Shown: positions 12,928 through 60,142 of the stretch, piece by piece | How positions within the stretch are numbered: position 1 is the stretch's first letter | Layout of the letters: each line of letters begins with the position of its first letter | Source of the DNA: Eledone cirrhosa | Taxonomy: Eukaryota | DNA: 64,000 nt | Reading direction: 5' to 3' | Assembly (NCBI GenBank): GCA_964016885.1 | Contig: CAXHJY010000271.1 | Coordinates: 1-64,000 of the forward strand | The notes under the pieces: model-generated | Database searches by the model: none | Told to the model about the DNA's origin: nothing | Seen by the model: only the letters and a program-made list of their open reading frames with translations | Translations under genes and position numbers: made by a program

Positions 12928-13445
12928 TATATATATACACATATATATATACACACATATATATCAGTGTACATATATATATACATATATATATATATAT
13001 AAATGAATATTTATTCAATTTAAAGCGCCAATTATCTATATATAACAAGATATGAATTTTTCTAGGGATGGGGAAATTTTCAGTTTGTTTTTATATTTTC
13101 ACTTCATTTTTTACTTTCTATTTAATACAGTCTTTGATCCAATATAATCCTGACAGTATTTGAACCAGTTTACCTCATATATATGTATGCACACACAACA
13201 CTCAAGTTTCGCCATCTACTGCTATTTCATTCATATTTATTGTTTAATTAACTCTGGTCTAATTCATCAACTATTGTTAATTATATTATTACGTAGATTT
13301 CTTATAAAATCTAGTGCATATATACGTGTATATATACAGGGAGACACTGTAATAGATGTAAAGAGAGTGGGAGATAGAGTTATAGAAGTAAAGAGAGGGG
13401 GAGAACTAAGCGGTAGATAGAGTCATAGATGTAAAGAGAGGGTTA

Positions 13446-13622
13446 GAACGTTCAACTTGACAGTCAGTACAATGTTCAGCATGGTAGCCAGTACATATGC
13501 CAACTACCCAACCGGCCAGCCAGCCGCATATGCGGTTGACTGGCCAGTTGGGCGGTTGGTATCTGGAACGTTCAACTACGCAGTCAGTACCAAAGTTCAA
13601 CATTGTAGCCAGTGCATATGCC
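13446..13622. repeat. 64-nt inverted repeat (13498-13561) flanked by ~56-bp direct repeats; other hairpins start at 23254, 31539, 39831, 45770, 51593, 59859
   Basis: Arms TGCCAACTACCCAACCGGCCAGCCAGCCGCA / TGCGGTTGACTGGCCAGTTGGGCGGTTGGTA (25/31 complementary); direct repeats GAACGTTCAACT...CAGTCAGTAC...GTAGCCAGTRCATATGCC at 13446-13501 and 13566-13622. Confidence 0.92.
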
Positions 13623-13668
13623 GATCGCCGCGCCCTCTTTGCTCTATTTTAATGACCTGGAACTAAGT

Positions 13669-13781
13669 AAAAAGAGTAGGAGATAACTCGACAAGAGCGG
13701 AGAGGGTGAGATTCGAACCATGTAAAGTCGTTGGCTCCTGAACTTCGTAAGCGGGGCTGCTACTGACTGAGCAGCGCCGGC
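13669..13781 (-). ncRNA. candidate Pol III small RNA gene, copy 1 (unidentified, tRNA-type promoter)
   Basis: GCCGGCG, A-box-like CTGCTCAGTCAG at +8, B box GGTTCGAATC at +63, TTTTT at +109, TATAA at about -34; no acceptor or anticodon stem. Confidence 0.55.
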
Positions 13782-14772
13782 AGCAAGGCAAATCGCGCAT
13801 AAAATAACGCTTATATCGACAAAAAAAAAAAAAAAATTTCAATGTTGCACTCTTGTTTGTTCTTTTATTTTACGTAAACATTTCGCTGCTCTAGCCTCTT
13901 ATTTCCTATAGATTACACTTAATTCCATTAAACATTCATTCTTAGTCTCGTGGTAAACTATTTCATCTATATTTATATCGCTGTTACAGCCTTTTATTTC
14001 TACATCTATCACCTATAGCCACTGTTACGCCGGTAGTATAAGTAGCTTTATAACAAGAAACGATGATATAACTCCACAAAATGTCTTCTTCAGCAAGACA
14101 CTTCACTTCATATTGCTCCAGTACACCGAGTTACACATAGACAGATACATACATACATACACAGATAGAAATGAGAGGTAGATAGAGTAAAAGATTTAAA
14201 GAGAGTGTGAGAAGTACGAGTTAGATAGTGTAAAAGATTTAAAGAGAGGGTGAGAGTGTGACACACATTTATCTGTCTATCTCTCTCTATTTTAACACCG
14301 GTCGTTATAATTAGTTTTATAACACCGCTATATTACCGACATGAAAGAGGTAAATAATTATTTCTTAAATGTTTAGAACATGTTTCTCTTGTCTTCTTAA
14401 ATGTATAGAACATGTTTCTTATTTATATTCTTAACATAGCTAGGACCTTATCTCATTTACTGGTCTCTACTTTTAGGGCTTTGCTGGTCCCATGTGCCCT
14501 CCATGAAGACACACTCGCCCCTTCTCTCTCAGTCTCCGTACTAATTACTACACATACGTATATATATTTATTTTAAGAAACCTTAATGACAAATAATATA
14601 AAGTGTTTGTAAAGTGGGGAAGAGTAGTTTTACGGTGGGGTTGTTATATAGATATCGTTTTTGCAGTGGGGTCGTGACTGGCGTATAATAATGAGTCACT
14701 GTTGATGTATATACAAATCATGTTTTGGATATAAGTGAAGTTATTTAAGAGATTTAGTTGTTTTGTATACAT

Positions 14773-23424: not shown

Positions 23425-23537
23425 AAAAAGAGTAGGAGATAACTCGACAAGAGCGGAGAGGGTGAGATTCGAACCATGTAAAGTCGTTGGCTCCTGAACT
23501 TCGTAAGCGGGGCTGCTACTGACTGAGCAACGCCGGC
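23425..23537 (-). ncRNA. candidate Pol III small RNA gene, copy 2
   Basis: As copy 1, with T at +8 (TTGCTCAGTCAG). Confidence 0.55.
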
Positions 23538-28656: not shown

Positions 28657-30582
28657 CATCATCATCACCGTTTTACGTCCGTTCTTCCACGCTAGCATGG
28701 GTTAGACGGGTTGTCCTGTTGTGGGCAGTGTCTGGTCGGCTGACCATGCCTTGCTCATACAGGAACTGATCTGGCTTGATTTCTACAGCTGGATGCCCTT
28801 CCTAACACCAACCTCATTTACAGTGAGTGCTGGGTGCTTTTTCGTGGCGCCTACACGTCCACTTTACAGTGTGGGCTGGGTGCTTTTTTGCCGTGGCACC
28901 TCCACGACCACCTTGCGGTGGGGGGGGGGGGCATATTGTTTATATGCTTCAGCATGTACCCATGGGAGGTCGGGTACCCTGTATTACTGCGTGACGCCAG
29001 AAGTCACGGTCGTGTGTCATTGACTTTGAGAGGTGTAGTTGGGTAAGGTCGGCTTTTATCACCTCATCCCAAGTCATCTTGGGTCTCCCCACTCCGCGGT
29101 TTCCATCAACTTCTAGTGCTCTGCACCTTTTTATGCAGCTGTCATCCTTCATACGCATCACATGTCCATACCAGCGTAACCGCCTCTCCTGCACGCAGCA
29201 TTTGATTCCTCTTATGCTCAGTCTCTCTCTCAATTCATTTATGCTTTGTCGTTCACGTATATTACTGTTACACATCCATCGGAGCATGCAGGCTTCGTTT
29301 CTCTCTAATCTACGTAGGTCTTCCACCTTCAGCGCCCAGGTCTCACTACCATGCAACATCGCTGTTCGGATACACGCATCATACAGTCTGCCTTTCATTC
29401 TGAGGGAGAAGCCTTTTGCAGCTAGCAGTGGTAGTAGTTCCCTAAACTTCTTCCATCCCGTTCTTACCCTAGTTATTGTACTTTCTGAGCACCCACCTCC
29501 GTTGCTAATTCGGTCACCTAGGTAGCAGAAGCTGTCTACTGTTTCTACAGGGCCCTCCCAGAGATTGGTGGTACTTGTTTCCTGTGGCTGTTTGCTTGCT
29601 GTTTCAGCACAGCTGCTGCATGTGAATCCTACATTCTTAATTAAGCTTCCTGAGATCCCGCTACATCTCTTGTGTACCCATTGTTTGCATTTGGGGCAAA
29701 GAATGGAGTTCCTACCTACACCTTTCCTACATACTGAGCAAGGCCATTTCCCTGAGGGGATCTGGGTTCTGTTTTCTCGTCTACTTATAAGGACCTTAGT
29801 CTTTGTCATGTTGACTTTGAGGCCCTTTCTCTCTAGTCCCTGCTTCCAGGTTTGGAATTTATTCTCTAGTTCTACCATAGATTCAGCTATGAGTGCGAGG
29901 TCATCAGCATACAGGAGTTCCCATGGGCATCCGGTCTTAAACTCCTCCGTTATTGCCTGCAGGACTATGATGAACAGGAGAGGGCTAAGAACAGAGCCCT
30001 GGTGGACCCCAACCTGTACGCTAAATTCCTCGCTATACTCATTGCCAATCCTAACTTTGCTGACTGCTCCCCTATACATGGCTTGTACCGCTTTCACAAG
30101 CCATTCATCTACTCCTAGTTTTCTAAGAGCCCACCAGATTACTGCACGTGGAACTCTGTCAAAGGCTTTCTCAAGGTCGACAAATGCCAAGTAGAGTGGC
30201 TTACTTTTAGCTAGGTACTTTTCCTGTAATTGCCTCACAAGGAAGAGCGCATCAGTGGTGCCTTTCCCTGGTACAAACCCAAATTGCATCTCGTCTATAT
30301 TCACCCGGTCCCTAATCAGCTGTGCTATAACTCTTTCTGTTACTTTCATGACCTGGTCCATCAACTTTATACCTCTATAGTTTCCTCTATCTAGTGCATC
30401 GCCTTTACCTTTGTAGCAGTTGACAATGATGCTACTGCACCAATCTTTTGGTATGGCCCCCTCTAGTATTACCTGGTTAACGATACGTGTGGTTATAGTG
30501 TGACCTACAGACCCAGATGCCTTCAGCATCTCGGCAGCTATACCCGATGGACCGGTTGCCTTCCCTATCTTCATATCTCTGA
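28657..30582 (-). mobile_element. 5'-truncated RTE-clade LINE with uninterrupted 541-codon ORF remnant (28949-30574), unit 3
   Basis: GKATGPSGI, NYRGIKL, DLEKAFD, GVHQGSVLSP, YADD, C4HC3 finger, RRLRWYGHVMR, GRPKMTW; 3' UTR with (GAT)n tail; no endonuclease domain. Confidence 0.94.
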
Positions 30583-31709
30583 TTAATTTTCCTTTTACAT
30601 CTCTTAGAAATAACTGAAAATCTTTGGTGAGAACCCCAATGTCTATTTATCTAATATAATTAATTTAATTTAATTTAATTTAATTTTTATTTTAGTGAAA
30701 CCACTGTTGTATTCAAGAGACCAGGTGGAGGGGTGGGTCTGCTAGATTCATCGTGGGTAAAGAACGGTGCTATGAACTTTTCTGGGTGGGAAATGACAAT
30801 GGGCTGGGTATACACATACCACCCCACCACCCCACCGTAAAGTGGTCGTGGAGGCGCCACGGCAAAAAAGCACCCAGCCCGCTCTGTAAAGCTGACGTGG
30901 AGGTGCCACGTAAAAAAGAAAAGCACCCAGCACTCACTGCAAACTGGGTTGGCGTCAGGAAGGGCACCCAGCTGTAGAAACCAATCCAGAATCAGCTCCC
31001 ACCCCACCCTTGCAAGCATGGAAAAGCGGACGTATGATGAAGTTGATATATATATATATATATAAATGAATATTTATTCAATTTAAAGCGCCAATTATCT
31101 ATATATAACAAGATATGAATTTTTCTAGGGATGGGGAAATTTTCAGTTTGTTTTTATATTTTCACTTCATTTTTTACTTTCTATTTAATACAGTCTTTGA
31201 TCCAATATAATCCTGACAGTATTTGAACCAGTTTACCTCATATATATGTATGCACACACAACACTCAAGTTTCGCCATCTACTGCTATTTCATTCATATT
31301 TATTGTTTAATTAACTCTGGTCTAATTCATCAACTATTGTTAATTATATTATTACGTAGATTTCTTATAAAATCTAGTGCATATATACGTGTATATATAC
31401 AGGGAGACACTGTGTAATAGATGTAAAGAGAGTGGGAGATAGAGTTATAGAAGTAAAGAGAGGGAGAGAAATAAGCGGTAGATAGAGCAATAGATGTAAA
31501 GAGAGGGTTAGAACGTTCAACTTGACAGTCAGTACATATGCCAACTACCCAACCGGCCAGCCAGCCGTATTTGCGGTTGACTGGCCAGTTGGGCGGTTGG
31601 TATGTGGAACGTTCAACTACGCAGTCAGTACCGAAGTTCAACATTGTAGCCAGTGCATATGCCGATCGCCGCGACCTCTTTGCTCTATTTAAATGACCTG
31701 GAACTAAGT

Positions 31710-31822
31710 AAAAAGAGTAGGAGATAACTCGACAAGAGCGGAGAGGGTGAGATTCGAACCATGTAAAGTCGTTGGCTCCTGAACTTCGTAAGCGGGGCTG
31801 CTACTGACTGAGCAACGCCGGC
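31710..31822 (-). ncRNA. candidate Pol III small RNA gene, copy 3
   Basis: Matches copy 2. Confidence 0.55.
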
Positions 31823-40001: not shown

Positions 40002-40114
40002 AAAAAGAGTAGGAGATAACTCGACAAGAGCGGAGAGGGTGAGATTCGAACCATGTAAAGTCGTTGGCTCCTGAACTTCGTAAGCGGGGCTGCTACTGAC
40101 TGAGCAACGCCGGC
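40002..40114 (-). ncRNA. candidate Pol III small RNA gene, copy 4
   Basis: Matches copy 2. Confidence 0.55.
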
Positions 40115-45940: not shown

Positions 45941-46053
45941 AAAAAGAGTAGGAGATAACTCGACAAGAGCGGAGAGGGTGAGATTCGAACCATGTAAAGT
46001 CGTTGGCTCCTGAACTTCGTAAGCGGGGCTGCTACTGACTGAGCAACGCCGGC
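45941..46053 (-). ncRNA. candidate Pol III small RNA gene, copy 5
   Basis: Matches copy 2. Confidence 0.55.
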
Positions 46054-51763: not shown

Positions 51764-51876
51764 AAAAAGAGTAGGAGATAACTCGACAAGAGCGGAGAGG
51801 GTGAGATTCGAACCATGTAAAGTCGTTGGCTCCTGAAGTTCGTAAGCGGAGCTGCTACTGACTGAGCAGCGCCGGC
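51764..51876 (-). ncRNA. candidate Pol III small RNA gene, copy 6 (variant)
   Basis: C at +8, T at +27, C at +39; B box and terminator unchanged. Confidence 0.55.
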
Positions 51877-60029: not shown

Positions 60030-60142
60030 AAAAAGAGTAGGAGATAACTCGACAAGAGCGGAGAGGGTGAGATTCGAACCATGTAAAGTCGTTGGCTCCT
60101 GAACTTCGTAAGCGGGGCTGCTACTGACTGAGCAACGCCGGC
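60030..60142 (-). ncRNA. candidate Pol III small RNA gene, copy 7
   Basis: Matches copy 2. Confidence 0.55.

Follow-up and report, generated by a model that had tools for sequence, protein, structure and literature searches.

The window analysed here is the first 64,000 nucleotides of an unplaced 86-kb contig (C298) in the 3.0-Gb genome of Eledone cirrhosa. From position 7896 onward it consists of tandem units of 5.8-9.8 kb. The basic 5.9-kb unit combines a 113-nt tRNA-like element, the subject of this analysis, with a frameshifted non-LTR retroelement relic, LINE fragments, another SINE, microsatellites and a minisatellite. The first unit (7896) ends about 70 nt upstream of the expected element start and so carries no copy. 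The features, all on the minus strand, are as follows.

7896-64000, minus: tandem array of 5.8-9.8 kb units, running past the window on the 86-kb contig (10 copies in 84 kb)
8842-10830, minus (start approximate): frameshifted non-LTR retroelement relic, with a reverse transcriptase fragment and a C-terminal restriction-like-endonuclease-type motif
11480-11826, minus (end approximate): different dispersed tRNA-type SINE with A/B-like boxes of its own
13330-13442, minus: 43-bp-type CT-rich minisatellite, common to the old unit
13447-13620, minus: insert with a hairpin, where arrayed copies depart from the old unit (+162)
13620-14293, minus: remnant of an older ~0.83-kb tandem unit (minisatellite, TATG run, reversed SINE fragment, upstream region, element and 50 nt downstream)
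13669-13781, minus: tRNA-Lys-like 113-nt element, copy 1 (C8 allele)
13811-13815, minus: TATAA at -34 of copy 1
13763-13774, minus: degenerate A-box-like motif, with T9 and A18 in all arrayed copies and C8 in 60/83
13709-13719, minus: B box with one mismatch to the consensus, its first 10 nt intact in 82/83 arrayed copies
13669-13673, minus: T5 run, a possible Pol III terminator
23425-23537, minus: element copy 2
31710-31822, minus: element copy 3
40002-40114, minus: element copy 4
45941-46053, minus: element copy 5
51764-51876, minus: element copy 6 (C8, T27, C39)
60030-60142, minus: element copy 7

The minus strand at 13669-13781 reads as the sequence-only reading had written it, and its seven minus-strand copies are real: a 31-nt piece of the element finds seven matches in the window versus none in 100 shuffles. 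The copies start at 13781, 23537, 31822, 40114, 46053, 51876 and 60142, measure 113 nt through the end of T5 in every case and differ only at +8, +27 and +39. Each carries TATAA at -34, an A-like box at +8 to +19, a B box at +63 to +73 (judged against the general B-box consensus) and T5 at +109 to +113. The two boxes lie 55 nt apart, and all the motifs of a type-2 Pol III gene (A box, B box, 30-60 nt spacing and oligo-T) are present; the same layout of A box, B box and T5 arose by chance in 3 of 300 shuffled units. The proposed type-2 Pol III-like anatomy is thus borne out at the motif level, with one element copy per unit. Relative to the genome's tRNA-Lys, however, the A box is degenerate at T8, R9 and G18. 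The common C/T difference at +8 had been read as preserving a base pair, and the pair is indeed kept, but C, the majority allele among arrayed copies (60 of 83), removes the T8 of real tRNA A boxes. Elsewhere in the unit (+568 to +626, approximately 13156-13214 of the window, minus strand), a perfect A-box consensus and a one-mismatch B box form a second pair, 48 nt apart; this pair has no T4 within 200 nt and is probably due to chance.

Several other components of the unit can be recognized. The retroelement relic, which we take to be CRE-like, matches RVT_1 at E=4.7e-5, below the Pfam cut-off; it recurs in every unit and adjoined an old tandem unit on C21 (L075) before amplification. The SINE at 11480-11826 is a 97% match to a dispersed copy (L161). 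A 565-aa open LINE fragment (28949-30646, minus strand; RVT_1 E=3e-32, with a PHD-like finger) belongs to an 8.3-kb variant of the unit, with further copies near 37.2-38.9 kb and 57.3-59.0 kb.

Collinear similarity above chance indicates a tRNA ancestry for the element, its isotype being provisional. Against a panel of the genome's own tRNAs that covered a minority of isotypes, tRNA-Lys(TTT) reached a global score of 52 when spliced and 54 with its intron, versus 45 for the next tRNA and shuffle maxima of 35.5-42, in agreement with the tRNA-derived origin suggested earlier. Lys(TTT) also had the best identity to the element over the 5' 22 nt among the tested tRNAs (mean 16, maximum 19/22), and the B box and 3' acceptor-like segment can be aligned to it as well. 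The spliced form aligns collinearly and the intron-bearing form scores equally well, while insertions of 1, about 11 and 4 nt disrupt the cloverleaf in the element. Under end-gap-free scoring a tRNA-like repeat ranks above Lys(TTT) (z 5.0 versus 3.0), and this result, together with the incomplete panel, makes the Lys isotype likely but not certain. On these alignments, the element is most likely a broken tRNA-Lys(TTT) derivative. A resemblance to tRNA-Sec was set aside since Lys(TTT) explains both ends.

As the sequence-only reading had stated, there is no cloverleaf. ARAGORN found no tRNA genes in the window or in 18 loci with older copies, and Rfam gave no match at the element even at E<=10, RF00005 included, nor any in the older copies; window-wide, the Rfam matches at E<=1 all fell under the gathering score and were mostly miRNA models on microsatellites. 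We therefore reject the element as a tRNA gene, the paired acceptor, anticodon and T stems being absent by both ARAGORN and RF00005. Comparison with the genome's real tRNA-Lys(TTT) genes brings out differences as well as likenesses. The T-run lies about 20 nt past the tRNA-like end in the element, a distance that is 1-13 nt for 33 of the 34 real genes, and the flanks of the real genes are not homologous to those of the element. A TATAW within -45 to -20, represented in the element by TATAA at -34, likewise occurs in 10 of the 34, and the real genes form tandem clusters (approximately 1.3-kb spacing at C2:99.08 Mb), as the element does.

Every intact tRNA-Lys(TTT) gene seen has an intron of 19 nt; such genes are read as 'tRNA-Stop' without intron handling, and they lie in tandem clusters. 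On C2:99.02-99.11 Mb (L111-L117) their spacing is 1.29 kb, and at C1:206.12 Mb (L109, L110, L118) they alternate with intron-bearing tRNA-Ile(TAT). The genome also holds a dispersed element of at least 1.4 kb that begins with a short hairpin and is 94-96% identical across several loci (L099-L107, L167, L170, L173; e.g. C1:3,557,818). It contains an internal near-perfect tRNA cloverleaf with anticodons GGC, AGC, GAC, GGT and GTC, presumably is Helitron/Helentron-like, and its core will be miscalled as tRNA-Ala(GGC). This 'Ala-GGC' element was considered as a relative of the 113-nt element, because it came top in one scoring scheme, and rejected: it ranks lower globally and its flanks show no homology.

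Size and type-2 promoter boxes would also fit a divergent vault RNA gene, as the sequence-only reading had proposed, and the genome has an MVP gene (C24:15.29 Mb). In vault RNAs the 5' and 3' ends pair (PMC7058938, PMC8824774); the element shares their length, internal promoter type and oligo-T but lacks the terminal stem and any match to the RF00006 model. The predicted probability of 5'/3' end pairing is 0.0 in the element versus 0.86 in the genome's vault candidates, and RF00006 does not match at the element at E<=10. When the genome was searched with RF00006, 17 of the 49 scored candidates matched, 14 of them over the cut-off, and all 14 lie in one cluster at C3:221.18-221.25 Mb with no BLAST similarity to the element. 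We therefore drop the vault-like label and regard this identity as extremely improbable; with that cluster and the MVP gene, the vault role is likely filled by other genes.

The C3 cluster (221,183,987-221,251,257; L251-L255, L260-L267) comprises 15 copies that fall into two types, of 87 nt and 93 nt. They have a terminal stem (0.86), in which one of the 16 pairs shows a two-sided change, and a centre that varies, along with a T-run and a TATA-like tract upstream; no canonical B box occurs within 300 nt in the six copies checked. Near-threshold candidates lie at C4:22,848,500 (L269) and C2:223,304,784 (L270). The cluster is a strong candidate for vault RNA genes, the missing canonical B box being its notable part. 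Vault RNAs are already known for a mollusc and an annelid (PMC8824774).

Older copies of the element, 71-91% identical, are scattered in the genome at lower number, and their flanks reveal how the present unit was assembled. Homology between old and arrayed copies continues past T5 for about 50 nt to +162, where arrayed copies turn to the insert; among the old copies themselves it goes on for hundreds of bases beyond +162. Upstream, homology extends for 80-430 nt in 21 of 24 old copies, and the other three begin at +4 to +9. The homology of old and new copies thus exceeds both proposed ends of the element. The sequence that follows the element in old copies is the sequence that precedes it in the array unit (-500 to -280). 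On C21, two old copies lie in tandem 832 bp apart, and this 832-bp unit maps to window positions 13784-14256 (81%), 14177-14293 (90%) and 13620-13773 (88%). From this mapping onto 13620-14293, the element was already part of a ~0.83-kb tandem repeat by the time about 5 kb of other sequence, chiefly relics of transposons along with microsatellites, was added at +162.

Two variants among the older copies stand apart. Four of them (L072, L073, L076, L081) have a CAAGATGGCG motif at about -75, which we take to be YY1-like and which is mutated in the arrayed lineage. A subfamily at C1:0.99 and 1.09 Mb, C17:37.35 Mb and C9:44.09 Mb (L069-L072) has 13 extra bases near the 3' end, completing a 7-bp hairpin before T5 in two copies; since a segment of another dispersed repeat (L060-L066) has the same bases, an insertion may have brought them in.

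In a different origin, the element would be a SINE head derived from tRNA-Lys, whether source gene or old insertion, that was later duplicated with its flanks; several features favour this. tRNA-Lys heads are common in SINEs, and the octopus SINE family 'OK' is tRNA-Lys-headed, though it did not appear in the literature searched. The element shares with tRNA-derived SINEs a tRNA-like head bearing A and B boxes. Its alignment to the spliced tRNA is collinear, even though an intron is present in the Lys(TTT) genes of this genome, and the three copies that begin near +4 to +9 have unrelated DNA upstream. Unlike such SINEs, however, it lacks a target-site duplication longer than 4 nt in nine of nine copies (the longest flanking repeat is 3-4 nt) and any A-rich or LINE-like tail, and it shares upstream DNA in the great majority of old copies. 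It may also have few dispersed copies: an old-type 16-nt pattern has 14 matches genome-wide, at least 11 of them true copies, in a search that omits very common words and scores 40 candidates per DNA query. The equal score of the intron-bearing tRNA also counts against this origin. Target-site duplications, which the sequence-only reading had named as a mark of an ordinary SINE head, were not found in the nine copies examined; an ordinary dispersed SINE is not supported, and descent from a SINE head seems quite unlikely.

Across the genome, two exact patterns of the element find 293 and 269 matches. Among the 100 of the 293 matches that were listed, 90 belong to four arrays, each terminal on its chromosome (C6, C8, C9 or C10); further chromosomes with copies are C11, C13, C15 and C18. 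TTAGGG tracts terminate C5, C6 and C9 about 100 kb from element copies, and no telomere tract is present at the start of C8 or the end of C10. On the telomere side, C6, C8 and C9 share flanks of at least 4.5 kb at 98-99% identity, the element in the terminal arrays is oriented away from the telomere (the same on C5, C6, C8, C9, C10 and C18), and isolated element copies bring several kb of the array unit along. With TTAGGG nearby and flanks common to several chromosomes, these arrays are subtelomeric tandem segmental duplications; C298, the contig of the window, is itself unplaced. Copies of the unit also occur 4-28 Mb inside large chromosomes, at C2:412.36 Mb, C3:361.62 Mb and C7:65.77 Mb (L034, L035, L038), and may mark former chromosome ends.

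The sequence-only reading had called the element the payload of the array. To compare it with its surroundings, 684 kb of four arrays was taken regardless of the element, and the unit was cut into 113-nt tiles, of which 16 of 52 were dropped as under-represented or microsatellite, leaving 36. Across 83 arrayed copies (one 91%-identical old copy being left out), the element has 11 variable sites and ranks 26th of 36 tiles (median 8.5); the 15 retroelement tiles have a median of 11. Its diversity of 0.012 ranks 29th of 36 (median 0.007), and with the old copy included it has 19 variable sites and ranks 43rd of 47 tiles. Trees combining old and new copies agree: parsimony changes per site are 1.23 in the body versus 1.18 in the flank (P=0.62, 71 sequences), and the observed/expected ratio for the body is 1.16 (56 sequences). 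The constant length of the seven copies had been singled out as special and is uninformative, since 24 of the 36 same-size tiles also have no length variant. Nor is the element retained better than the relic: 84 copies, versus 85-87 for the retroelement relic and 60-68 for another segment. No length variant of the unit has lost the part in which the element sits, and that other segment is absent from about a quarter of units. The element therefore shows no excess conservation over its flanks or the dead retroelement, in a comparison among paralogues that has little power for a young RNA, and the payload claim is not supported. Divergence equal to that of the flanking transposon relics, which the sequence-only reading had said would count against an RNA gene, is what the paralogues display. 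Because the element varies as freely as the broken retroelement beside it, it is most likely a carried-along relic.

Not all parts of the element vary equally. The A box is the more variable box, with observed/expected ratios of 1.6-2.5 versus 0.4-0.7 for the B box, although the B-box ratios rest on 1 and 4 changes in a sample partly found through the B-box pattern. In the same partly biased sample the 3' half has 18 changes versus 26 expected. Among the 83 arrayed copies the B box is intact in 82 and T5 in 83, and +87 to +113 is without a variant.

One reading of the better-kept B box is that the DNA itself matters: a TFIIIC-binding B box every 6-10 kb could act as a chromatin barrier or anchor where the chromosome arm borders telomeric heterochromatin, much as tRNA genes and B boxes form barriers in yeasts. 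The position of the arrays about 100 kb inside telomeres, their common orientation on six chromosomes (C5, C6, C8, C9, C10 and C18) and the contrast between the boxes would fit. Against it, the B-box counts are tiny and biased by how copies were found, the unbiased set of 83 arrayed copies has one variable site in the 11 nt of the B box versus 11 in the 113 nt of the element, and the B box is altered in 6 of 24 older copies, as read off the alignment. We consider a barrier function improbable.

Of the two stems drawn by the sequence-only reading, the 5' hairpin holds up in arrayed copies (predicted probability 0.95, versus 0.05 in the old majority sequence), whereas the second has a predicted probability of 0.11. 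The whole fold has z -1.13, and across an alignment of 20 old and new copies the consensus fold reaches -7.6 kcal/mol with a covariation term of -0.14. None of its 19 pairs has a two-sided change in the 20 copies, and 74 of 200 column shuffles do as well (SCI 0.35 versus 0.34), so a conserved two-stem structure is not upheld. The earlier structure itself scores slightly above shuffles (covariation 10/500, paired cells 17/500, pair counts 51/500), an outcome that relatedness alone can produce, and two of its pairs cannot form in 12 and 10 of the 20 copies, respectively. On the branch leading to the array, three of six changes (C4G, G46A and C90G) improve its stems, but the energy gain is ordinary, being equalled by 18% of random sets. 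The consensus fold also offered a 9-bp stem (61-69/91-99) as an alternative, rejected because its probability is 0.0 in single arrayed copies.

These patterns bear on a further possibility, that the element is a young, lineage-specific Pol III RNA gene of the snaR/4.5SH type: a tRNA-derived transcript of about 110 nt with a 5' hairpin and some 290 copies, amplified because dosage mattered and acting as a protein-binding or decoy RNA. Rodent 4.5SH genes are type-2 Pol III units of ~100 nt that have a TATA-like box at about -30 and end in oligo-T. They number in the hundreds, one per multi-kb tandem repeat; 4.5SH is 7SL-derived, transcribed and has an assigned function (PMC10137851). Great-ape snaR is young, ~117 nt (PMC2094060), equipped with A/B boxes, derived through indels from older small-RNA-derived tandem sequence and spread by segmental duplication; it is also Alu-derived, highly structured, expressed and protein-bound (PMC3045588). 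The element resembles 4.5SH in its type-2 layout, one copy per multi-kb repeat and hundreds of copies, and snaR in being young, ~115 nt long, furnished with A/B boxes, derived from an older tandem repeat and spread at the DNA level. It differs from 4.5SH in being tRNA-Lys-like, near telomeres and without detectable constraint, and from snaR in folding no better than shuffles; unlike both, it is known from sequence alone.

The array layout of these RNAs is therefore reproduced, with one small-RNA-derived unit per multi-kb repeat and duplication at the DNA level, but structure or conservation above the flanks was not found in the element, in a comparison of paralogues with low power. In favour of such a gene, the TATA-like box, A box, B box and T5 occur in nearly all copies, a layout rare by chance, the 5' hairpin is predicted strongly in arrayed copies and hardly at all in the old majority sequence, and the 3' half is slightly slow. 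Set against this are the absence of excess conservation (with the same reservation about paralogues and a young gene), the changeable A box with T8 gone from most copies, and the lack of a conserved fold. Almost every copy has kept its B box and T5, which makes a young transcript like snaR or 4.5SH conceivable, and because paralogue tests are weak over so short a time, we give a young functional RNA a minor but appreciable chance.

Our preferred explanation, which we think probable on the sequence evidence, is that the element is a broken tRNA-Lys(TTT) passenger of an array near chromosome ends, and that any transcription would be incidental. A tRNA-Lys gene or its transcript may have given rise to a ~0.85-kb tandem repeat and then decayed, and one unit could have ended up inside a subtelomeric block. 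Unequal exchange, both within single chromosome ends and from one end to another, would then have amplified and homogenised the 5.9-kb unit regardless of its content. Some low-level use of the intact B box and T5 by TFIIIC and Pol III may persist, giving a product without detectable selection. The bolder reading is a newborn tRNA-Lys-derived Pol III RNA gene with about 290 copies in subtelomeric arrays of many chromosomes, abundantly expressed and functional as an invertebrate counterpart of snaR/4.5SH, or else an array of B-box TFIIIC barriers; either of these would be rather unlikely.

The literature searched, outside older cephalopod SINE papers and supplementary repeat libraries (e.g. PMC13282606), contains no description of the element, and the available parts of PMC13282606 and PMC7904556 hold nothing specific on it. 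We class it as a further case of tRNA-derived sequence in tandem duplication. If the element is a relic, it documents well how a tandem repeat of tRNA origin can be taken into a subtelomeric duplication and amplified again; that would not be surprising, but it would help annotation, where its 290 copies might be mistaken for a family of RNA genes. An expressed and functional element would instead mean that new Pol III RNAs arise by the snaR/4.5SH route outside mammals too, with its origin steps preserved, the decayed ancestral 0.83-kb tandem units of such a young gene being still readable within one genome.
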